The position numbers were made by a program, and so were the translations under genes. A stretch of DNA of 64,000 bases. Source: an uncultured delta proteobacterium (lineage in GTDB: Bacteria; Desulfobacterota; Binatia; UBA9968). The stretch spans positions 43,425 to 107,424 of the forward strand of contig CAVWLW010000045.1 in assembly GCA_963755715.1 (NCBI GenBank), written 5' to 3'. Each line of letters begins with the position of its first letter. Within the stretch, counting starts at the first letter, position 1. Below, one piece after another: positions 9,306 through 63,101 of the stretch. Below the pieces are notes generated by a model that saw nothing but the letters and a program-made list of their open reading frames with translations, ran no database searches and was not told where the DNA came from.

Positions 9306-10331
9306 ATGGGAGCAAAACGAAAAGTGTGCCTTACGGGTCCCATGCGCATCAAGCTCGCCGAAGAAATGCTGCGCGCCGCCGGTTGCGAGCTGGTGTCGGG
9401 CAAACCTCAGGATGATTTTCGGACCTTTCGTTACGAGCGCAAGGAACTGGTCAATCTGATCGGCGACTGCCCGATCGTCTATCCCTCGGGCCGGGACGTG
9501 ATCACCGGTGAGATTTTGGATTCCTGCCCGGATCTCCAAGCCGTGGTGAAGTCGAGCATCGGCATCGAAACCGTCGACGTCGATGCAGCGACGGACTTAG
9601 GAATCCTTTGTTGCAACAGCCCGACGGTGGAAAATTATATGGGCGTTGCCGAAGCGACCATGGGGCTGATCGTGGCGCTATTCAAACGGCTGAAGCTCAA
9701 TGAGGCCTACCTACGCAACAACGGTTGGAAAGAGCTAGAGAACCGCGGCACGCTGATGCTCGGAAAAACCGTCGGCATTATCGGTGTCGGACGCATCGGT
9801 CAAAACGTCGCCAAACGGCTCGGCGCCTGGGGCATGAAAGTGATCGGCTATGACCCGTATGTAAAGCCGGAGACTGTCGCTTCGCTCGGGGTCAGAATGG
9901 TTTCACTCGAAGAGCTGCTGCAGCAGTCGGATCTGGTGACGCTGCACGTCGTGCTGACCCGGGAAACCCGCGGCATGCTCGGCATGCGTGAATTTAAAAT
10001 GATGAAACCGACGGCGTTCATCGTCAACACTTCGCGCGGCCAGGCAATCAAGGAGGCGGAGCTGGTGCAGGCGTTGAATGAAAAAATCATCACCGCCGCG
10101 GCACTGGATGTTTTTGAGCAAGAACCGCTGCCGATGGACAATCCTTTGCGCCAGGTGGACCCGCTGCGCTTGATCTTGACGCCGCACAACATCGGCGCCA
10201 ACCCCGGTTCTGCGGAAGCGGGGCAGAAAATGGCCGCTGAGAGCATGTTGGCAATCCTCGACGGCAAAATTCCCGACACGGTCGTCAATCCATTAGCGAT
10301 CCCGCGTTGGAAGGAGCGCTTCTGGTCGTAG
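9306..10331 (+). CDS. D-isomer-specific 2-hydroxyacid dehydrogenase (SerA-like)
   Basis: GIIGVGRIG, VNTSRG, AALDVFEQEP, LTPHNIG. Confidence 0.9.
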   Translation: MGAKRKVCLTGPMRIKLAEEMLRAAGCELVSGKPQDDFRTFRYERKELVNLIGDCPIVYPSGRDVITGEILDSCPDLQAVVKSSIGIETVDVDAATDLGILCCNSPTVENYMGVAEATMGLIVALFKRLKLNEAYLRNNGWKELENRGTLMLGKTVGIIGVGRIGQNVAKRLGAWGMKVIGYDPYVKPETVASLGVRMVSLEELLQQSDLVTLHVVLTRETRGMLGMREFKMMKPTAFIVNTSRGQAIKEAELVQALNEKIITAAALDVFEQEPLPMDNPLRQVDPLRLILTPHNIGANPGSAEAGQKMAAESMLAILDGKIPDTVVNPLAIPRWKERFWS

Positions 10332-10356
10332 GACTCCCGCGACATGTCGCGCGTCC

Positions 10357-11367
10357 GTGATGATTCTAAACTACAGCCGCAACTTATCCGCGCCCTTCTT
10401 CGTGTTCGTCATCGTGTTCATCGGTGGCTTCACGAGCAGTGTCTCATTTGCCGCTAACTCGACGGTGCGCGTAGGCTACCCGCAGCCGAGCGGCGCGATG
10501 CTGCCGCTTTGGCTGGTTAGCGACGCCAAGCTCGATCTGAAGTACGGCGTACCGGTGCAGAATATTTTTATTTCCGGCGCCGCCCGGATGAATCAATCGA
10601 TGGTCGCCGGCGATATCGATCTCGCCAGCATCGGCGGCGCAGTGGTGAATACCGTCTTGGCCGGAGGTGACTTAGTCGCCATCGCGGTGGGCGTGCCGAC
10701 TTACGGTTTTTCTCTTTACGCGAAACCGGAAGTCAAAGACATCGCCAGCCTGCACGGCAAAGTCGTCGGTATCATGAGCAAAGGCGCGTCCTCGGAGCAC
10801 GCCGTCATCGCGCTGCTGCAGCGCAACAACCTGCAACCCGGCAAGGATGTGAAGTTTATCTATCTCGGTGGCGTGCGCGAAGTGCTGGCGGCCATCGATC
10901 GGGGCATCGTTTCCGCCGGCGTGTTGTCGTCACCGACCACTTTAGCGGCGCGCCGCTTGGGTCAAAAGGAGCTAGTCAATATCGCGTCGCTAAACTTGCC
11001 TTACATTCACAGCGGCGTGGCGACCCGGCGCATCTTTACGCGGCAACAGCCGGAAGCCGTGAAAGCGTATCTGCGGGCGTATATTGCGGCGATCAAGATC
11101 GCCAATGAAGACGCCGAAACCAGCAAGCGCGCGCTGTCCCGTTATCTCGTGACCAGCGACAGCGCGATTCTCGAGGAAGCTTATCAAGCCTTCCGGGGAA
11201 TTTTTCCGCGCGTGCCTTACGTGACCGAGGATTACATCAAATCGGTCATCGCCGTGTCGGACAATCCGAAGGCGGCCGGCGCCAATCCAAAAGATTTTTT
11301 CGACAACCGATTTTTGAAAGAGATCGAAGACAGCGGCTTCGTTCAGGAGCTTTATGGCCGGCGCTAG
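10357..11367 (+). CDS. ABC substrate-binding protein, NMT1/SsuA/THI5 type
   Basis: Signal peptide; LHGKVVG, GASSE, DFFDNRFLKEIEDSGF C-terminal signature. Confidence 0.85.
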   Translation: MMILNYSRNLSAPFFVFVIVFIGGFTSSVSFAANSTVRVGYPQPSGAMLPLWLVSDAKLDLKYGVPVQNIFISGAARMNQSMVAGDIDLASIGGAVVNTVLAGGDLVAIAVGVPTYGFSLYAKPEVKDIASLHGKVVGIMSKGASSEHAVIALLQRNNLQPGKDVKFIYLGGVREVLAAIDRGIVSAGVLSSPTTLAARRLGQKELVNIASLNLPYIHSGVATRRIFTRQQPEAVKAYLRAYIAAIKIANEDAETSKRALSRYLVTSDSAILEEAYQAFRGIFPRVPYVTEDYIKSVIAVSDNPKAAGANPKDFFDNRFLKEIEDSGFVQELYGRR

Positions 11368-12381
11368 TCTGTCCAGACGCTCGGCGAGATCGGCGTCGTG
11401 GTTGTTTGTTGTCGGTTGGTTGATCATTGCGGCGTTGTTGCCTCAGAAAATTCTCGCGGCGGCTGTGCCCAGCTACGATCCGCATCGGCTATCCGCAGCC
11501 GAGCGGCGCCATGTTGCCGCTGTGGGTGATTAGCGAGGCGAGGCTCGATCAGAAATATGGTTTCAACTCTCCAGAATATTTATATTTCCGGGGGTGCACG
11601 GCTGACTCAGACCGTGGTATCCGCCGATATCGATATGGCCGCCACGGGCGGCGCAGTGATCAACGCCGTGTTGAGCGGCGCCGAGCTGGTTTACATCGCG
11701 TCCGGCGTGCCCACCTATGGGTTTTCTTTGTATGCCCGTGCCGATGTGAAAGATGTGCCGTCGCTCAAAGGCAAAGTGGTCGGTCTGATGACCAAGGGCG
11801 CTTCTACCGATCACGGCATGACGGCGCTGTTACGCCAATACAATCTTCGTTCTGGTCAGGATGTCAAAATTTTATATCTCGGTGGTGTGCGCGAGGGGTT
11901 GGCTGCTCTGGACCGCGGCATCGTCGCGGCGACGACGATTTCGGCGCCGACGACACTGATGGCACGCCGGCTGGGCTATAAGGAGTTGGTGAACTTCGCC
12001 ACGCTCAAAATTCCCTACGTGCAGCTGGGCATGGTGTCGCGCCGGTCGTTATTGCGCCAACAGCCGGAGCGGATCAAAGCTTTTCTCAGAGCCTATGTTG
12101 CGGCGATCAAAGTGGTCAACGAGGATGCGGATGTGAGCAGACGCGCGCTGGCGAAGTATCTGGCGACTTCGGATGGTCCGATCATCGAGGAGGCCTACCA
12201 GGCTTATCGCGGCATCTTTCCCAAAGTCCCCTACATGACCGAGGAGCAGATCGTTTCGATCCTGGCGGTCGCGGATCATCCCAAGGCGGCCGGCGCCGAC
12301 CCCAAGGAGTTCTTTGACAACCGCTTCATTAAGGAGTTAGAAGATAGTGGATTTGTAAAGGAACTCTATGGTCAGAAGTAA
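11354..12381 (+). CDS. ABC substrate-binding protein, NMT1 type; tandem paralog of the previous gene; apparent frameshifts (~11465, ~11562)
   Basis: Shares GYPQPSGAMLPLW, GVPTYGFSLYA, YLGGVRE and FFDNRF with the upstream gene; split over three frames. Confidence 0.8.
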
Positions 12382-41481: not shown

Positions 41482-42486
41482 TTAGCGATACAGCGACTCG
41501 ATAAAATCTCCCGCCTGCAACTGGCGCACGAAGCGATCGTCGAAAAATTTATTGGGATCTAAATCTTTTGCCTTCGGATTGCGCTCGGCGAGCTCATCTA
41601 AGACCGACCTGACCGCGTCGGCGGTCGTGAGCGGTGTTTTCATCATGTACTTGGCGATCTGAACATCGTAGGACTCCGCAAGTAAATCCATGTCGGTGGT
41701 GCGCAGGTATTTGGACAATACTTTCAGCGTGAATGCGCGGTCTTTCTTCATTAAGGCGATCGCTTCGATCTCCGCCGAAAGGTAACGGCGTACTAGATCG
41801 GGGTCGTCGCGGATGATGTCGCCGCGCGTGGAAACCCCGGTTGAGGCGTAGGGAATATTGAGCGACGGCAGATGCAGCATCACGCGGTTGCCAAGTTTCA
41901 CTGCTCGGCTGGTCGCCGGATAACCGAACACGCCGGCTTGCACGCGATTGCCTTGCAGCGCGCCGACGATCCAATCGCCGGCGCCGATCTCGACGATGTG
42001 AACGTCTTTGCCCGGCTCGAGACCGAAGTGCTTGGCGGCGAGACGCGCGCCGGTGTGGAGAGAGGTGCCGTAGCGGCTGATGCCGATGCTCTTGCCGCGC
42101 AATTGTTCGGGTTTCTCGATCTCCGGCCGCACAACTAAATTCAATACCAGCGTCCCCACCATCGTCGCGACAATCTTCAAGTCGGCGCCGCCGACCACCG
42201 CCCCGGTCGTGGTACCGCCGGCGATCTGAACAAACGACACTTCGCCGGCGATGAGCGCATTGGTGCCTTGCACGCCGCTCGGTGTCGCGATTACTTCAAC
42301 TTGTAAGCCGTATTTTTTAAAGATACCGGCTTCATGGGCGGCCCACGGTGGCACCATGGAGCCGGAGAGCGATGTGATGGCGGCGCGAATTTTGCGCGGG
42401 TTGGAAATTTCACCGGCGTTGACGGAGCGACAATAGCTGAAACAGCCTAGGACACCCAAGACGAGAAGGGATCGCCTAATCAACAT
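41482..42486 (-). CDS. ABC substrate-binding protein, NMT1/SsuA type
   Basis: AHEAGIFKKYGL, LRGKSIGISRYG, FFDDRFVRQL. Confidence 0.85.
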   Translation of the reverse strand: MLIRRSLLVLGVLGCFSYCRSVNAGEISNPRKIRAAITSLSGSMVPPWAAHEAGIFKKYGLQVEVIATPSGVQGTNALIAGEVSFVQIAGGTTTGAVVGGADLKIVATMVGTLVLNLVVRPEIEKPEQLRGKSIGISRYGTSLHTGARLAAKHFGLEPGKDVHIVEIGAGDWIVGALQGNRVQAGVFGYPATSRAVKLGNRVMLHLPSLNIPYASTGVSTRGDIIRDDPDLVRRYLSAEIEAIALMKKDRAFTLKVLSKYLRTTDMDLLAESYDVQIAKYMMKTPLTTADAVRSVLDELAERNPKAKDLDPNKFFDDRFVRQLQAGDFIESLYR

Positions 42487-42693
42487 TGCCCACCTCCGGA
42501 AAATTTGCCCAAACGTGTTGCAACAGATAGCTGATCGCATTGCCCGGCGTCAACTTCGGAAGTGGACGAAGATCGGGTAAAACAATTGACCCTATCAAGC
42601 GCGCTGTGATAATCCGTGACCAGTTAAAATTGAACTACTCGGCGCGTGTTGCGCGACACGCAGACGCAAGCAAAATCGGCGAAAGGAATGAAT

Positions 42694-47082: not shown

Positions 47083-47407
47083 ATCGGGGTGTGTTGGAAT
47101 TAATCCGATACGTCGGATGAGGTGAATCTAGCGAGCGATGCTGAGTCGGGGTGAAACGGGCGCTCATCCAGTGTGCGCAATTGGCCAGAGCTGATTGTGG
47201 CGACGGTTCATTTGGAATCCGCGCTGAATTTCAATAGTAAGAAAAATTTTTCGCGCCGCTCCGAATGACACTTCATCGCGAAATCTTCGACTAAGGTCAG
47301 GATAAACTTCAGGGGGGATCCCGATCCAGCTGAACACTCGCTATTGACGGATTCATTTCGGCTTTCGTATATAGGCGCTAGGTTTGCGACCTGCAAAGGG
47401 CTTGGGA

Positions 47408-48463
47408 ATGAAACGTCGAGATGTCGGTGTGGCAGCCATCGTGTTTTTAATCGTCGCGCTTTCGATTAACCCCGGGATCGCGATCGCCAATCCCTACCTT
47501 GCCAAACCTGGCGAGCCGACCGTGCGAGCGCGCATCGGCGCATGCGCAGTCACCGGCGGTTTTATCCATCTCTACAGCGCGCTGGATAATCGGCTTTTCG
47601 AAAAGTACGGCATTAACCCAGAGAGCATCGTCGTGCGCGGCGGCGGCGTGGCGCTGGCGGCTTTGGCATCCGATGAGATCAATTTTCTTTACTGCAATGC
47701 GGACGCGAATATCGTGCGCATCGGCACGGGAGCAGATGGAAAATTGCTCGCTTCGCCGCTTATCGGATTACCCTACGTGGTGCTGGCAAGAAAGGACATC
47801 AAGCGCGCCGCGGATCTCAAAGGCAAGAGTATTGGCGTGACCCGGCCGGGAGACTTTCCCTACCGGCTCGCCAAAGAGTTTCTCAAAAAGCACAATCTTA
47901 GTGAAAAAGACGTGACGCTCGCCACGGTGGGCGGCACGCCCACCGAGCGCTATGCCGCGCTCTTGCAGGATGTTTTTCAGGCGACGTTGATTCAGCCGCC
48001 GCTCGACGCGCGCGGCAAAAAGGACGGCTTCAACGTTATCTACAATCTCAACGATCTTGGCTTGCCGTTTATCTACAGTTCCTTATTCACCAACTCCAGG
48101 ACCCTAAAAGAAAGTCCGGCGCTAGCGCAGAAAGTCGTGGCGGTGCTCGCCGAAGCGGTTTACTTCGTCGAAAAGAATCCGGAGCAGGCGATGGCTTCGG
48201 TGGGCAAAACTCTGCGGATCAAAGACGCGGATACGCTTCGCTCGGCCTATGACGCCTACGCGAAAAATCTCATCAACCGGCGCATGATCGTGCCGGCAAA
48301 ACTGGTCGCCGAAACGCTTGAGCTTGCGCGGCAAGACGGTACGGTCATCAGAAAGAAAGCCGGCGAGATTTACGATAATGTTTTTGTCGAGAATTTGGAG
48401 AAAAGCGGCTTCATGAGAGAGCTTTGGGGCGGTGCGGTGCCGGGAGACGGACAGAAGCCGTGA
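47408..48463 (+). CDS. ABC substrate-binding protein, NMT1/SsuA type
   Basis: Signal peptide; LFEKYGI, DLKGKSIGVTRPG, YDNVFVENLEKSGF. Confidence 0.85.
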   Translation: MKRRDVGVAAIVFLIVALSINPGIAIANPYLAKPGEPTVRARIGACAVTGGFIHLYSALDNRLFEKYGINPESIVVRGGGVALAALASDEINFLYCNADANIVRIGTGADGKLLASPLIGLPYVVLARKDIKRAADLKGKSIGVTRPGDFPYRLAKEFLKKHNLSEKDVTLATVGGTPTERYAALLQDVFQATLIQPPLDARGKKDGFNVIYNLNDLGLPFIYSSLFTNSRTLKESPALAQKVVAVLAEAVYFVEKNPEQAMASVGKTLRIKDADTLRSAYDAYAKNLINRRMIVPAKLVAETLELARQDGTVIRKKAGEIYDNVFVENLEKSGFMRELWGGAVPGDGQKP

Positions 48464-49647: not shown

Positions 49648-49819
49648 GGCGTGGTTCCATCGGTGACTTTGTAGTCGGTCGAGCCAAAATATTTCGCCGC
49701 GATCTCAACGCATTGAGCGTCGAGGCCCAGCATCTCGACGTGACGACCTTGGTTTCGGCGAGCTTTCGGAGTGTGCCGTGGCATAAGCACTGGCGCGGAA
49801 TGGAACCTAACCTTTACCC

Positions 49820-51001
49820 ATGAGAATTTTTCTTAGCTATCCGTGGCAGGACCGCGAGCAGGCGAAATCGATTTACTTGGCCCTCGCCGATCAGGGACAT
49901 CGGGTTTTCTTCGACCGCACCGATCTGCCGGCCGGCGATGAGTATCATAATCGCATCCGCGCGGCGATCGAGAATTCTCATCTAGTCATCTTTTTAATCA
50001 GCCCGGATGCGATCGATGCCGAGAGCTACACGCTGACCGAAGTGGAGATCGCCGTAAAGGCGCGCGTGAAATTGCTGCCGGTGATGCTCCGCGATACCGA
50101 TATCGCGAAGCTACCGGCAGCGGTGCAAGCGGTGACGATTTACCGCCCCGACGGCAATGTTGCGGCAAGCGTCGCCGCGGAGGTCCACCGCATCGCCGGC
50201 GCGTTCAAGCGCCAACGGCTCAAACGATTCAGCGCCGCGCTGTTGGCGGTGGCCCTGATCGTCGCTGGGTTCGTTTACGTGCTCAATGCCCGCAACAGGC
50301 AGGGACTCATCGGCAAGGATGGCGCGCCGGCGATTTTGATTCCGGCCGGCAGCTTTATCATGGGCGACGACGAGAGCTCGCCGCGGCGCGAGCTCTTTGT
50401 CGATGCTTTCTATATGGACAAGTTTGAAATCACGGTGGCACGTTACGCGAAGTTTCTGCAAGCGACGGGCAACGTCAAAACACCCGAGGAATGGGATACG
50501 GTCAATGTTCAGAACGACGGGGAATTTCCCGTGGTCGGCGTCGACTGGCAGGATGCCGACAGCTATTGCCGGTGGGCGGGAAAGCGTTTACCCACCGAGG
50601 CAGAGTGGGAAAAGGCCGCGCGCGGAGCCGATGAGCGAAAGTATCCGTGGGGCAACGATCCACCTTCTGCGGAGCGGGCGCGATTCGCCAAGCCCTACCA
50701 GAACCCGGTCTACAAGGATGGCATCGCGCCGGTCGGTTCCTATGCCAAAGGCGCGAGCTCGTTTGGTGTTTTTGATTTGGCGGGCAACGCATCCGAATGG
50801 GTCGCCGACTGGTATTCCGAAAGTTTTCAGCGCGCCGAGGCGCGCAACCCCAAAGGGCCGGAAGGCGGCACAGGGAAGGTGCTCCGCGGTGGCGGTTGGT
50901 ATGACCCCGCGGAGCGGATCACGGCGACTCGACGCATGTATGCGAGTCCGGCCAATCGCGCCGACGACATCGGATTTCGCTGTGCCCGGGACTTAAAGTA
51001 G
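49820..51001 (+). CDS. TIR domain + TM helix + FGE-sulfatase (SUMF1) domain protein
   Basis: IFLSY...VFFD...SYTLTE; hydrophobic segment; RLPTEAEWEKAARG, DLAGNASEW, GFRCA. Confidence 0.88.
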   Translation: MRIFLSYPWQDREQAKSIYLALADQGHRVFFDRTDLPAGDEYHNRIRAAIENSHLVIFLISPDAIDAESYTLTEVEIAVKARVKLLPVMLRDTDIAKLPAAVQAVTIYRPDGNVAASVAAEVHRIAGAFKRQRLKRFSAALLAVALIVAGFVYVLNARNRQGLIGKDGAPAILIPAGSFIMGDDESSPRRELFVDAFYMDKFEITVARYAKFLQATGNVKTPEEWDTVNVQNDGEFPVVGVDWQDADSYCRWAGKRLPTEAEWEKAARGADERKYPWGNDPPSAERARFAKPYQNPVYKDGIAPVGSYAKGASSFGVFDLAGNASEWVADWYSESFQRAEARNPKGPEGGTGKVLRGGGWYDPAERITATRRMYASPANRADDIGFRCARDLK

Positions 51002-53815: not shown

Positions 53816-54799
53816 ATGCCTTCAGAGTCTTCGCAAGATGGATCGCGCTGATATGTTTTCTCATTTTAGCGCTTGGCTTTACGTCGACTCACGGCAGCCG
53901 CCGCAGAATCGACCCTGGTTCAAGTCGGTTATGGCGGCATCGCCGGCTATCAGCTTCCTTTATGGGTCAACAAGGACCACGGCATCAGCAAAAAATACGG
54001 CATCGAGCTCGAGCCGCTCTTGATCAGCGGCGGCGCGCTCAACATGCAGGCATTGCTCGCTGGCAGCATTCAAATGAGTCAGAACTCGGCGTCATCGGCG
54101 CTCCAGGCGGCACTGCGCGGCGCACCCGTGGCGCTGATCGCGGTGCTCGAAAATCGCATGCCGCTGCAGATCATCGCCCGCCCGGAAATCAAAACGCCGC
54201 AGCAACTGATCGGCAAGAAGATCGGCATTTTGCGCTTCGGCGGTTCCAACGACACCGGGGTTCAGTGGGCGTTGCGGGCGTGGAAGATCGATCCGCGCCA
54301 GGTTACGATGCTCCAGTCCGGCGCGACCAACGCGCGCATGACCGCCCTGACTTTGGGCCAGATCGACGCGACGATCCTGTCCTATCCCGAAATTTATATT
54401 GCCCGCAAGCGCGGCATGAACGTGCTCGCCGATATCGGCGACTTTAGCGCCTATCCCAACACATCGCTGCTGCTCACCCGATCTTTCATAGAGAAACAAA
54501 GAACTTTGGCGAAAAATTTGCTCCGCTCTCAGATCGAAGCGATTCATTATGTCCGCACCGACCGGGAAGGGAGCATTAAGACTCTCAAAAAATATCTGCG
54601 CGTCGATGACCTCGAGTCCATCGAAGCGACCTACGATTTCTTCTCACGGCGGACCGAAGCGCTGCCGCGGCCGAACTTTGAAGGACTCAAGAACATTTTA
54701 AAGGAGCTGGGCGCGCCGCAGCGAAACCCCAATGACTTTGTCGACATGAGCCTGCTCGATGAAATTGAAAAAGAAGGATTCTTGCAAAAACTTCGCTAG
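53816..54799 (+). CDS. ABC substrate-binding protein, NMT1/SsuA type (5' end frameshifted, start approximate)
   Basis: KKYGIE, LIGKKIGILRFGG, FVDMSLLDEIEKEGF; signal peptide in another frame. Confidence 0.8.
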
Positions 54800-54862: not shown

Positions 54863-55255
54863 ATGAGACTGCGAAGCGGCATTAAGTTGTTGGACGAACG
54901 GGAAGGGTCAGGAGAGCCCGCTAAGACGGGTGACAGAATCATTTACAATCTTAAGATTTATCTAAACAAAGGCGAGGAAGTTCCAATCAACGAACGCCAG
55001 GCGGAACACTTGCCGGAAAAAATGATCAGGGTTGGGGAAGATGGCCATCGTTGGGTGGATCACTCGATAACTCTTGGCCAGCGGCAAGCGATGGCCGGCG
55101 TCGAGTACTCCTTAGTCGGAATGAAACAAGGCGGTTATCGCAAAGTGCGCGTGAGCCCTCATCTTGCTTATCGCGCGACGGGAATTGACGGTCTCATTCC
55201 GCCCGATGCGGTGCTGATCATCGAGTTGTGGCTGCGTGAATTGATCCGCACCTAA
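54863..55255 (+). CDS. FKBP-type peptidyl-prolyl isomerase
   Basis: GSGEPAKTGD, GVEYSLVGMKQGGYRKVRVSPHLAY, IPPDAVL. Confidence 0.85.
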   Translation: MRLRSGIKLLDEREGSGEPAKTGDRIIYNLKIYLNKGEEVPINERQAEHLPEKMIRVGEDGHRWVDHSITLGQRQAMAGVEYSLVGMKQGGYRKVRVSPHLAYRATGIDGLIPPDAVLIIELWLRELIRT

Positions 55256-55331
55256 TTTTGCTTTGCCCATCGCGCAGACTGGCCTGGAGGCCGGGAATTG
55301 TAATAAAATACGCGCGTTGGGTCCGGCTACT

Positions 55332-56216
55332 ATGTCAATCATGAACCAAATTTTTATAAGTTATGCTTCGAAGGATCGAGAACGGGCGCGGATGATAGCG
55401 GCAGCGTTGGGCGGGCACGGCTGGGACGTTTGGTGGGATCGCGAAATACCGCTCGGAAAAGCCTTCGATGAAGTCATCGAAAAAGCGATCGCTGAAGCGA
55501 AGTGCGTGATTGTGCTGTGGTGGCGGCTTCCGTGGCGTCCGAATGGGTGCGCAACGAAGCTGCAGAAGGCAAGCGTCGCGGTATCCTCGTTCCGGTATTT
55601 ATCGAACAGATCGATGCGCCGTTGGCGTTTAGATCCCTCAATGGCGCCGACTTAAGCGCTTGGAGCGGCCATGGAGGCGACGCCGAGTTCGTAAGGCTCG
55701 TTGAGCGAGTGAGTGAATTGCTCGGGCAAGCAGGCAACGAATCGTTCGCCGGCGGCGCGCAACCGTCGCGGTACAGCAGGCGCCGACCGGCAAAGAGACT
55801 CAGACGAAGTGGGCCGTTCCGACAAAGAGCAACCGGGAGTCGACACCATAAGCATCCATGACTTGGTGGGCACGCTCGGCGGCGCGATCCCGGCGACTTC
55901 TCTCGCAAAAGGATTTCATGTGCCCGATCTTGGCATGCGCATCGCTTTCCTGACACCGGAGCAGAGCGCCTCCACGCTCGGCGCGATGCCGGCCGGGGCC
56001 GTGGTGATGGAAGTCGAAAGCGGACGGCCCATGGCGAAGGCGGGCATCCACGTCGGCGATGTTGTCGTATCGATCGGCGGTAAAAAGATCGGCAGCGAAG
56101 ACGATCTGCGCCAGGCGATTTTTAAAATCGGTCCAGGCAAGACTCAATATTCTTACCGGCGCGGCGGCGATACCAAAACCGTGGCGGTCGACTGCGCAAA
56201 CTGCAAAGTTGAATGA
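55332..56216 (+). CDS. TIR domain + PDZ domain protein; apparent frameshifts (~55520, ~55770)
   Basis: IFISYASKD...VWWDREIP, SVASEWVRNEA, then LGMRI...AKAGIHVGDVVVSIGG. Confidence 0.7.
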
Positions 56217-59787: not shown

Positions 59788-59832
59788 ATCTCTCCGGGTG
59801 CGAGGATCAGGAATCAATTTTCTCCTCGCTCC

Positions 59833-59862
59833 GTCATTCCCACATGCTTTAGCGGGAATCCA
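59833..59862. repeat. REP-like hairpin (GTCATTCCC...GCGGGAATCCA type)
   Basis: GTCATTCCCACATGCTTTAGCGGGAATCCA downstream of can. Confidence 0.55.
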
Positions 59863-60325
59863 TCTTCGATTTGTTCATTCTCGCACGGTCCCTCGGTGCC
59901 AGCTTTGCGCGCGCGCCTGAAGGACTGTCATTCGTCTTCTGCTGGCCCAATGATACGCCGGTCTTGAATACTGAAAATATTTTCAGTATATCGATTTTAG
60001 CTAACCAGCCCGGGAGTTCGCCTCGTCGGACGTTGGTGGGCTGCTTAGGAATTTTAATCGCTGAGCTGGTTCGAACGATTTGAACGGCTTGAACGTTTTG
60101 GAGCGCTTCAATGCAGTGTGAGCGGAAGCCTATCGATGATTTTTGTGACCTTCCTTCTCCTCAGCGCAAAGTTTTTCTCACATCATTTCGCCAATGCCGT
60201 GATCGTTCGCAGAAGTCGGACGACACTAATGAAGATTTCCGGCTCGAAGGCGTCAGTGCCCTGCCAGCATTCATAGATTCGCGGAGGAAGGAATGCGACG
60301 ACAACCGCACCACAAGGAGAATGTT

Positions 60326-61299
60326 ATGAATTACGTCAACACGCACAAGCCTACCAATCGTACGTTTGCTGTAATCGACGGCGGATTGAATCTCAAAGCT
60401 AGCGTCGAGCCGCTTATAACAACTCAGAAACCGAGATTGCTCGACCAAGTCAGGCAGGCGATTCGCACGCGGCACTATAGCTACAGGACCGAGAAAGCCT
60501 ATGTGCATTGGATCAAGCGATACATATTTTTCCATGACAAACGCCATCCGGCTGAAATGGCCGAATTTGAAATTGGGCGATTTCTTTCAAGTCTTGCGAC
60601 GGAGGGGCACGTCAGTGCCTCCACGCAAAATCAAGCATTCAATGCGCTTTTGTTTCTGTACCATGAAGTCTTGGACAAGAAGATCGGGCTCATCGACGGT
60701 GTCGTGCGCGCGAAGAGGCCTGAGCGACTGCCAGTCGTGCTCACGAAAGACGAAGTCAAGAAAGTGATCGATCACATAACCGGCGTCCCGCGTTTGATGG
60801 CGATTCTGCTCTATGGTGCCGGCTTACGATTGATGGAATGTTGCCGGCTTCGAGTCAAGGACATCGATTTTTCTCGCAACGAGATTGTTGTTCGATCGGG
60901 AAAAGGGAACAAAGATCGCTACACGATGCTACCCAGCGCGGTTCGAGATTCGTTGGTCCAACATCTTCGAGACGTTCGTGCACAACACGAAGCGGATCTA
61001 AAACGGGGCTTGGCCGGGTTTCATTGCCGGATGCTCTGGACCGAAAATATTCCAGCGCCGGTAAAGAATGGGGCTGGCAATGGGTTTTTCCGGCCACCAG
61101 TCATTTCACCGATCGGGTCACGGGCGAACAGCGCCGGCATCATCTCCACGAATCCGTGTTGCAACGCGCATTTAAAGAAGCGCGGCTCAAAACCGGAGTT
61201 TTCAAACCGGCAGGGTGCCATACATTGCGTCATTCATTTGCGACGCACTTGCTGGAGGACGGTTACGATATTCGAACCGTCCAAGAATTGTTGGGGCAT
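60326..61299 (+). CDS. intI: Integron integrase, 5' segment (ends at LLGH; also a 1-nt apparent frameshift ~61005)
   Basis: AAGGAG RBS; LLDQVR...[29 protein letters not shown], IntI-specific patch ALDRKY...WQWVFPA...[27 protein letters not shown]. Confidence 0.95.
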
Positions 61300-61582
61300 T
61301 CACCCCGTGAGATAGGTTTATGCAACAACACTACTATGTCTATGTCTTAAGATCTTTCAAGGACAAACAGTTCTATGTTGGATTCACCAAGAATCTGCCA
61401 GCAAGAGTTGAGGCTCACAACAAGGGCTTGGTTCCGTCCACGAGAAACCGATTGCCCTTGCAACTTGTCTACTGGGAGGGCTGCCTCAACCAGACAGACG
61501 CAACGCATCGAGAAAAATACTTGAAGACCGCTTGGGGAAAGCGATACGTGAAAACGAGGCTCAGAAATTATCTCACGGGGTA
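61300..61582. mobile_element. 283-bp inverted-repeat-bounded insertion carrying a GIY-YIG gene, inside intI (boundaries may slide by up to 3 nt)
   Basis: ACCCCGTGAGATA (61302-61314) and TATCTCACGGGGT (61569-61581) form a perfect 13-bp IR; removal rejoins LLGH to xDVSTTMIYTH. Confidence 0.9.
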
Positions 61583-61583
61583 A
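61320..61583 (+). CDS. Stand-alone GIY-YIG nuclease (87 aa)
   Basis: YYVYVL...FYVGFT...RVEAHN...ST..R.P..LVY.E...A..RE.YLK. Confidence 0.92.
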
Positions 61584-61687
61584 ACGACGTAAGCACGACA
61601 ATGATTTACACGCATGTATTAAATCGAGGCGGCAAGGGCGTTCACAGTCCGGCGGATAGGTTAGGGTTTGATTCCGCGCGACCGTAA
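61583..61687 (+). CDS. intI: Integron integrase, 3' segment containing the catalytic Tyr
   Basis: Translated by hand: [34 protein letters not shown]; Tyr codon TAC at 61607-61609. Confidence 0.93.
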   Translation, partial: NDVSTTMIYTHVLNRGGKGVHSPADRLGFDSARP

Positions 61688-61784
61688 CCGACAAAGGCTG
61701 ACATATGCGCAGTGTTCGCCGGAATACTTTTTCGTTGTTAAGCGTTGAAAACAATTATAGGATTGCTCAAATTCATGAATTTGT

Positions 61785-61823: not shown

Positions 61824-61836
61824 GCACAAAACGAAA

Positions 61837-62330
61837 ATGCGTGCCTCAGCGAAACTGATCTTCTTGTGTGGAAAAATGGCGGCAGGCAAATCGACTCTCG
61901 CGAGAGATTTGGCAGAGCGGGGAAATGCCGTCCTTCTGGTGCAGGACGAACTGATAGATAGGTTGTTCCCTGGGAGATCACTGACATACCAGGATTCGTC
62001 AAGTACTCATCCCGACTCAAGGATGCGCTTGCGCCTCATATTTGCTCTCTACTGTCGAAAGGCATCTCTGTTGTGCTCGACTTTCCCGGCAACACGAAAA
62101 CGCAGCGCGCGTGGTTTCGCCAGTTATTTGAAAACGCAAATGCTGAACATGAACTGCATTTTGTAGACGCGCCGGATGCCTTGTGCAAACGTCAACTCAA
62201 GGATCGAAGCAAAGATCTTCCTCCTGGCAGCGCCTGGACAACGGATGCAGATTTCGAAGCGATCACCGTATATTTCCAGCCTCCTTCAGAGGAAGAAGGG
62301 TTTAATGTCGTCCATCACAAGCGCGCCTAA
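61837..62330 (+). CDS. Cassette 1: AAA_33-type P-loop kinase/ATP-binding protein; apparent frameshift ~61975
   Basis: CGKMAAGKST Walker A; VLDFPGNT...R; YFQPPSEEEGF. Confidence 0.85.
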
Positions 62331-62414
62331 CAACACGCTGGTTCCGACGGCCAAATCGCTGCGCGCTTTGGTTCCCTCCCGTTGGTCGGCCGCGGCACAG
62401 CGTGCGCGTTAGGC
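62325..62414 (+). other. attC site 1 (90 bp)
   Basis: R'' GCCTAAC, L'' GCTGGTTC, L' GCACAGC, R' GTTAGGC; overlaps the cassette 1 stop codon. Confidence 0.9.
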
Positions 62415-62443
62415 TGCCCCACGATTATCGGTACTCTTACGTA

Positions 62444-62994
<551 letters not shown>

Positions 62995-63025
62995 AGAAAG
63001 GCCTCGTGGCGACGAAGCTGGGGCC

Positions 63026-63101
63026 GCCTAACATGCGCGTGCAGCGGACTCGCTCATCGCCTTCGGCTCTTCGCTCGCCGCTGACGCGCTACCCGTTAGA
63101 C
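63026..63101 (+). other. attC site 2 (76 bp)
   Basis: R'' GCCTAAC...CGCGTGCAGCGG...CCGCTGACGCG...R' GTTAGAC. Confidence 0.9.

Follow-up and report, generated by a model that had tools for sequence, protein, structure and literature searches.

We examined the integron integrase gene intI on contig CAVWLW010000045.1 of an uncultured delta proteobacterium, within a 64,000-nt stretch that was analyzed as a whole and is called the window here. The gene lies at positions 60326–61687 of the window on the + strand, and its coding sequence is broken into three pieces by a missing base and by an inserted element that carries an intact gene for a small GIY-YIG nuclease within a 16-nt inverted repeat. 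A first-pass annotation of the same letters had laid out the coordinates and reading frames of this region, which the open reading frames (ORFs) and matches to the profile TIGR02249 confirm, and had overlooked the identity of the insert.

Piece 1 (60326–61009, + strand) encodes the N-terminal SAM-like domain (PF13495, E 6.6e-31) and the first half of the catalytic domain (PF00589, E 8.5e-14), and matches TIGR02249 at profile positions 1–190 with 248.7 bits. It ends at the frameshift site CGGGGC (61004–61009, + strand), which is one base short compared to homologues and where the frames encoding DLKRG and LGRVSLP share base 61009. The missing base falls within the G-run 61005–61008, and the hidden Markov model (HMM) match switches frame between 60997 and 61015. 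Piece 2 (61009–61299, + strand) continues in a frame shifted by −1, contains the IntI-specific segment, matches profile positions 193–288 with 148.6 bits and closes with a C-terminal ELLGH. The histidine codon CAT of LLGH occupies 61297–61299, and the frame leaving it enters the insert and ends at TAA 61348–61350 without reaching the catalytic tyrosine codon, as had been read from the letters before. Piece 3 (61583–61687, + strand) encodes (N)DVSTTMIYTHVLNRGGKGVHSPAD..., carries DVSTTMIYTH with the Tyr codon TAC at 61607–61609, and is open for 34 codons up to its own stop at 61685–61687; its coding part (61583–61684) matches profile positions 290–315 (E 5.6e-09, 35.8 bits). The TIGR02249 cut-off of 265 bits lies above the score of every single piece, and the in-order pieces summed would exceed it. 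Both the IntI-specific extra segment (LP.AL..KY.....W.WQ.VFP) and the tyrosine-recombinase residues up to the Tyr, motifs long established under these names, are encoded across the separate frames and pieces.

Database IntI proteins P0122, P0124 and P0129 are in frame across the 61005 region, where one form of the peptide reads DLKRGLGQVSLP. We rejected a programmed −1 frameshift at 61005: no slippery heptamer is visible by eye and close homologues continue in one frame across the site. Removing 283 nt in silico from 61300, 61301, 61302 or 61303 onward confirms that four adjacent registers join the pieces as H-N/Y/S/S-DVSTTMIYTH. Among the 120 closest IntI proteins of the matches listed, 78 are uninterrupted and separate H from D by a single residue, which is N in 37, R in 31 and S in 2; because the closest intact IntI proteins read H-N-D we favor the register 61300–61582. 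The first-pass annotation had further called the gene restorable by one exact excision, a claim that fails for this sequence because the 1-nt deletion at 61005–61008 also breaks the frame. The same junction read-through, with an identical 16-residue tail, ends five other database IntI proteins that are only 75–96% identical to that of the window, and occurs again at locus L001 of the genome survey described below; the insert junction is therefore not a product of chance. In two further IntI proteins, P0220 and P0226, the sequence beyond TTM(I/V)Y switches to another read-through (YAQ...), which may reflect another type of insert at the catalytic Tyr codon.

A nuclease gene inside a terminal inverted repeat

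In its likeliest register, supported by the in-silico deletions and the H-N-D homologues, the inserted element measures 283 nt (61300–61582, + strand), and the unit from repeat to repeat spans 61299–61584. A search for inverted repeats identified its two 16-nt arms, the left arm TTCACCCCGTGAGATA at 61299–61314 and the right arm TATCTCACGGGGTAAA at 61569–61584 (both given on the + strand), which are 94% complementary. Between them lies an intact single-domain GIY-YIG nuclease gene of 87 codons (61320–61583, + strand; PF01541, E 3.7e-13) whose stop codon is part of the right arm, such that this arm also encodes the invariant C-terminus YLTG and the stop. The repeat stem closes both the RNA fold (z −3.45) and the single-stranded DNA (ssDNA) fold (z −2.68) of the element, and no promoter-like site on the + strand was found within or just upstream of it. 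Across the family the arms read TTYA-CCCCGTGAGATA ... TATCTCACGGGG-TRAA and form the ends of the element, with the gene held in the hairpin loop. In an alignment of 50 copies the sole consensus helix is the 13-bp terminal stem, in which double compensatory changes occur at 5 pairs (20 cells, versus 7 broken cells). Conservation inside the ORF by codon position is 0.77/0.86/0.50, with third positions varying freely; constraint inside the ORF therefore acts on the protein only.

The nuclease scores 50 bits for PF01541 against a cut-off of 22.6 and consists of this one Pfam domain in 87 aa. Residues Y8, Y19, G21, R29, H33, N34 and E53 are invariant among 25 aligned family members, and their catalytic roles would be those assigned to the equivalent positions of the GIY-YIG family. 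A structure model (predicted local distance difference test score, 90) has a beta-beta-alpha-beta-alpha-alpha fold. By sequence, 1zg2 and 1ywl of the UPF0213 group are the closest solved proteins and SLX1 comes next, and the model's best fold match is the SLX1 nuclease domain (template-modelling (TM) score 0.64–0.67, root-mean-square deviation 2.5 Å), compared to a TM score of 0.45 for I-TevI and UvrC. PADLOC returned a single weak match (UzuA, E 0.0025) and PHROGs no match for the nuclease, and plasmid and phage records held no close relative, with best matches 35–38% identical. In clusters at 90% identity the nuclease has 2705 relatives at E<=1e-3, the best 120 of which are 63–100% identical and mostly 86–90 aa long; at 50% identity, 2241 clusters match at E<=1e-10 in a search of 1.84 billion representatives.

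We compared the element with the known classes of insert and set several aside. A self-splicing intron of group I or II was rejected on the lack of conserved internal structure, the free third codon positions and the lack of an Rfam family: over the whole window no Rfam match reached the gathering score, and at E<=10 the region 61150–61750 gave just three chance-level matches with E>1. A classical terminal inverted repeat transposon or miniature inverted-repeat transposable element is not consistent with the outer 4-mers TTYA and TRAA, which are inverted and do not form a direct target-site duplication, and of whose 8 bases 2–6 belong to the host reading frame. Insertion of a cassette by IntI was dismissed on a right junction without G↓TT and on arms unlike the attC core, judged by eye against what we take to be the consensus. 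Membership of IS200/IS605 was excluded as the element's single ORF is the GIY-YIG nuclease and no HUH (Y1) transposase TnpA is present. The insert is a full copy of a selfish element that is widespread and seemingly undescribed: in the literature searched on GIY-YIG nucleases with integrons or mobile elements we found no account of such an element in intI. The 64,000-nt window contains no further copy, by repeat pattern or by family profile over 702 stop-to-stop frames.

Copies, host genes and junctions in other genomes

Of 250 candidate stretches from a genome scan, 245 were confirmed, and we fetched the best 80, those nearest to the window's element. Calling copies with a strict pattern for both repeat arms gave 59 copies in 57 of the 80 loci, or 60 with the copy in the window, and a looser repeat search found arms around most of the remaining loci. 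The loci come from metagenome-assembled genomes (MAGs) of Acidobacteriota, Verrucomicrobiota, Bacteroidota, Ignavibacteriota, Chlorobi-type bacteria, Planctomycetota, the Candidate Phyla Radiation and others. An element of ~285 bp of this kind is common in uncultured bacteria of many phyla from soil and water.

Tyrosine-recombinase genes are the host of 37 of the 60 copies, all on the same strand as the gene they interrupt. These hosts were assigned by Pfam matches of the upstream flank (30) or downstream flank (5) and, for L028, by HMM; the window's copy completes the count. A single copy, at L076, lies antisense in a recombinase gene, making the ratio of sense to antisense 37:1. At that locus (L076:2011–2736) the opposite-strand recombinase gene is cut off at its LLGH codons, where it borders the element, and the other side of the element holds a fragment of another repeat arm, an arrangement of nested copies. 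Most recombinase hosts contain the IntI-specific segment; those at L019, L029, L052 and L065 are without it. The element recurs at particular positions (arrow, point of insertion), with 11 copies at LLGH↓, 6 at DVx↓TTMIYTH, 4 at G↓KG.K.R, 3 at TQNQA↓ and 3 at LRx↓KD.D; with two N-terminal positions and several single ones, at least 12 positions are occupied in all, in conserved motifs. Together, these data show recurrent and precise sense-strand insertion into tyrosine-recombinase and IntI genes. Hosts other than recombinases include SLFN_AlbA_2/HATPase_c_4 genes (5 copies) and IS200-like or RAYT-like genes, and further copies sit at the ends of SRP54-type (FtsY-like) and MGMT genes, in a Bro-N domain gene and in intergenic DNA.

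No extended target motif is shared among the 60 copies, and position −1 is a purine in 51 of them. Target mimicry was rejected as well: host flanks and repeat arms agree at 2.1 and 2.3 of 8 positions, versus 1.95 in controls. To locate the joints, we translated the two flanks separately, without joining them, and derived from HMM coordinates how many of the outer repeat bases (TTYA plus TRAA) are needed to preserve both frame and length of the host gene. Among 33 copies this number is 4 in 16, 3 in 8 (including the window), 5 in 2, 6 in 2, 2 in 2 and ambiguous in 3. The retained bases encode residues expected of the host protein, namely Lys in GKG, V/I-K-D and H-K-D and F/L-N in QA.NAL, and the host sites therefore resembled T↓RAA, with joints that overlap the ends of the element by 0–4 nt. 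No single excision register restores all host frames.

Comparative evidence argues that the element moves. One site in homologous genes is occupied repeatedly, as with homing endonuclease genes, and in some pairs at the same site the elements are far more similar than their hosts: element versus host similarity is 0.90 versus 0.66 for the window and L001, 0.93 versus 0.66 for L022 and L028, and 0.83 versus 0.61 for L004 and L053. The shared 16-residue read-through tail in IntI proteins of only 75–96% identity points the same way. On the element tree the site labels cluster (28 changes, versus 41.6 in shuffles), and close sister elements nonetheless occupy different positions in the pairs L021/L024, L033/L025, L009/L058 and L067/L080. 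Two loci carry two separate elements at different positions of one intI (L012:2412–3265 and L067:2986–3822).

The family also includes ORF-less mini hairpins that consist of a left arm, 6–80 nt and a right arm (L024:3266–3325; L006:1198–1233; L045:3255–3480; L054:1850–3283; L076:1726–2749). Mini hairpins may stand alone, adjoin a full copy in tandem inside intI, or form arrays of up to five units, and the tandem junction is GGGG-TTYA-CCCC, with a 4-nt spacer, in 5 of 6 loci. Free hairpins or arrays are present in L006, L024, L039, L041, L045, L054 and L076. The element at L011:342–653 is flanked on the left by the LLGH site, with 12 nt identical to those of the window, and on the right by unrelated sequence, which points to rearrangement between two copies or to a chimeric contig.

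Fate of the integron and rival explanations

The start of the cassette array occupies 61825–63101 on the + strand, downstream of intI on the same strand and not divergent from it, with GTTAGGC at 61825–61831. Scanning with what is presumably the core-site consensus, together with ssDNA folding, identified attC-like sites at 62325–62414 and 63026–63101. The cassettes encode an AAA_33 kinase-like protein, a RibD_C protein, a GrpB protein (to about 63680) and an unnamed ORF that runs off the window end (64000). Pfam searches on the pieces demonstrate that the AAA_33 and GrpB cassettes are frameshifted, at about 61970 and 63350, each being split across frames; no split domain was found in 58 other long ORFs of the window or in the neighboring genes for Tag glycosylase and carbonic anhydrase. 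The lesions cluster in the integron.

The IntI protein P0122 is 96% identical to that of the window and has the same insert without the 61005 deletion, and the deletion is therefore younger than the insertion or a sequencing error. P0151 combines the same insert with an independent frameshift elsewhere. A Terriglobales MAG contig (L013:1–657) matches the window at 59885–60153 and 61275–61656 with 96–97% nucleotide identity and lacks window positions 60154–61274, a loss of 1.1 kb that removes most of intI; still present are the final 25 nt of piece 2, the 3′ piece and the element, the latter with one right-arm base changed. Further frameshifts, stops or truncations affect 9 of the 37 element-bearing recombinase genes.

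We conclude, with a probability of about 0.72, that this intI is a doubly broken, decaying pseudogene that carries a 1-nt deletion and the insertion of a mobile hairpin-nuclease element. The encoded IntI lacks its Tyr nucleophile and is out of frame, and the integron therefore cannot shuffle its own cassettes. The integron of this genome, which has no working integrase of its own, has the look of a decaying relic, and its cassettes would move only if another IntI acted in trans. The first-pass annotation had offered either a knock-out that froze the array or a reversible switch acting by excision or splicing. An insertional knock-out that leaves an array without its own integrase, and not a poised switch, is the best reading of these data, and the reversible switch or splicing has gained no positive support.

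A possible mechanism follows the precedent of Ssn enzymes, GIY-YIG proteins of one domain that are encoded between hairpin repeats and cut only ssDNA beside a hairpin (Chenal et al. 2025, PMC11893778). By analogy with Ssn and its NTS repeats and with SLX1, the nuclease would recognize its own stem in ssDNA and cut at the stem base. The unit would then move as or through ssDNA, with host ligase sealing joints that use a 0–4 nt overlap with a short T↓RAA-like target, and the nuclease would be expressed by read-through from the host gene. SsnA of Neisseria meningitidis cuts when the stem halves are on separate oligonucleotides (PMC11893778), and by the same analogy stem recognition should work with the arms far apart in the element.

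Several points weigh against the pseudogene interpretation and this mechanism. The ssDNA mechanism is modelled on other systems, and nuclease activity, excision and transposition of the element are predictions from sequence. Roughly three in four element-bearing recombinase genes have no other lesion, which fits recent insertion and would also fit genes that work through removal of the element. The 61005 and cassette frameshifts could be local assembly errors, in which case decay would have to be argued from L013, P0151 and the remaining loci. Placement in the most conserved catalytic motifs, together with the 37:1 sense bias, is the pattern of introns and inteins. No extended target motif accounts for the strong preference for intI, whose share may be inflated for the wider family because the 80 loci are those nearest to the window's element. 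This preference and the near-exclusive sense orientation would both fit a single idea, in which a promoterless nuclease gene would be expressed along with its host gene and insertion would target the exposed non-template strand of genes under transcription at the time.

The foremost alternative is a reversible DNA switch, in which the nuclease and host ligase would excise the unit precisely from ssDNA, in the manner of IS200/IS605, and restore IntI in some cells, for example during the SOS response, whereupon cassette shuffling would start. Precise ssDNA excision has a precedent in IS200/IS605 (PMC5027513). In the element the paired ends bring both host joints together, close relatives have uninterrupted alleles, the host genes are mostly undamaged except for the element, and the sense orientation would couple nuclease expression to intI transcription. 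Against such a switch, the window's frameshift survives excision, and the number of outer bases that restores the frame varies from 2 to 6, such that a fixed cut restores at most 16 of 33 hosts. A hydrolytic GIY-YIG nuclease conserves no bond energy for rejoining, secondary lesions are present in 9 of 37 hosts as well as in P0151 and L013, and the cassettes are decaying as well. We regard a DNA switch as unlikely. A bolder proposal extends this idea to a new class of nuclease-only ssDNA transposon that would be specialized in intI, SOS-expressed and precisely excising, and would act as a population-level off/on switch of integrons across soil and water bacteria; we hold it to be quite improbable.

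Removal at the RNA level would make the insert an intron whose terminal helix aligns the exons, with cutting by the encoded or a host nuclease followed by exon ligation. Sense orientation in 37 of 38 recombinase hosts, insertion in conserved motifs and an RNA fold closed by the repeat stem are all in keeping with an intron. The 50-copy consensus, however, contains no helix beyond the terminal stem, third codon positions are free, no Rfam family matches at the gathering score, and the frame-restoring register is variable. The same hairpins moreover occur ORF-less, in tandem arrays and outside genes, and SsnA is inactive on RNA (PMC11893778). This makes RNA-level removal very improbable.

Less credible again is a gene in pieces, in which the N-terminal fragment and a separately translated 3′ peptide bearing the Tyr would form an active integrase. 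Upstream of the 3′ piece its frame stays open as far as a TTG at 61532, and a phage ribonucleotide reductase split by an endonuclease gene reportedly remains functional. From copy to copy, however, the 3′ piece lies in different frames with respect to the element, and there is therefore no conserved start or coupling for it; the window's upstream fragment is frameshifted, and copies elsewhere cut the protein within core domains. An assembly artefact, with the insert or the frameshift a chimera or consensus error, has at least three frameshifts within 3.7 kb of the integron and the difficulty of assembling cassette arrays from mixed strains in its favor and is next to negligible, given the same host–element junction in five independent database proteins, L001 and L013 and the same ends in 59 further copies, and it could apply to the single-base frameshifts only.

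The insert can be viewed as a compact mobile unit in which one small nuclease gene sits inside what would be its own recognition hairpin. If confirmed, this arrangement would assign a natural function to Ssn-type nucleases, that of driving a selfish element, and would provide a very small self-contained pair of nuclease and site for ssDNA tools. It would also represent a frequent and specific cause of intI pseudogenes that would be miscounted as truncated integrases in integron surveys, and would account for many pairs of 'truncated integrase' and 'GIY-YIG nuclease' genes in metagenome annotations.

Elsewhere in the window, an ORF at 49811–50998 encodes a TIR_2 domain fused to an FGE-sulfatase domain and a second ORF at 55245–55652 has a partial TIR_2 match; both may be related to defense. 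Five NMT1/THI5-like periplasmic binding-protein paralogues adjoin amidohydrolase genes (10297–12378, 41485–42549, 47375–48460, 53870–54796).

Relation to known systems

The element shares with Ssn and its NTS repeats a single-domain GIY-YIG protein of ~90 aa (87 aa in the element), a gene bracketed by hairpin-forming inverted repeats, and free-standing hairpin copies nearby; the NTS-ssnA-NTS unit has itself been likened to an insertion sequence (IS) by its authors (PMC11893778). The systems differ in that the two arms of one hairpin form the ends of the element, with the gene in the loop, and in that the element repeat CCCCGTGAGATA / TATCTCACGGGG is unrelated to the NTS consensus as quoted in that paper. 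A search of 12 of its 14 supplement files found no element arms. In this comparison the mobility of the element is backed by comparative evidence, its activity is predicted, and the likeness rests on size and repeat layout and not on assignment to cd10448, the Ssn family in CDD. The window also contains a single CGTC-tagged hairpin (CGTCATTCCC...GCGGGAATCC, 59831–59862) that is near the Neisseria NTS/SRM consensus (PMC11893778); it lies between the carbonic anhydrase gene and intI and is not part of the element, and the window holds no second NTS-like hairpin and no second small GIY-YIG gene.

Like IS200/IS605 and REP/RAYT systems, the element is a tiny unit with hairpin-forming ends, no target-site duplication and a short target beside its end, and it has non-autonomous hairpin derivatives and a strong strand and orientation bias. 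Unlike IS200/IS605, it has no HUH/Y1 transposase and encodes a hydrolytic GIY-YIG nuclease as its only gene, and a single long-range stem built from both ends replaces the subterminal hairpin at each end, with a variable junction register.

Repeated occupation of the same position in catalytic motifs, an element more conserved than its host, and a nuclease of the GIY-YIG class are features shared with homing endonuclease genes. In contrast to those in introns and inteins, the element has no ribozyme or intein and its length is not a multiple of three. It also differs from homing endonuclease genes in its lack of a DNA-binding module (87 aa), in sister copies that occupy different sites and in the absence of an extended target motif. 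I-TevI is a protein of 245 aa, and the fold of the element nuclease is nearer to SLX1 than to I-TevI. SLX1 and UPF0213 proteins provide its best sequence and fold matches, and those enzymes cut branched or flapped DNA at the junction of single and double strands; unlike the element nuclease, SLX1 needs SLX4, has a RING domain and has no link to repeats or mobility.

Nemergut and colleagues reportedly described ordinary intI pseudogenes in chromosomal integrons in 2008. The window's intI resembles such genes in its inactivation by frameshift and insertion and in the cassette array left behind, and it differs from them in that the inserted element is not a generic IS and instead is a specific and recurrent parasite of intI.

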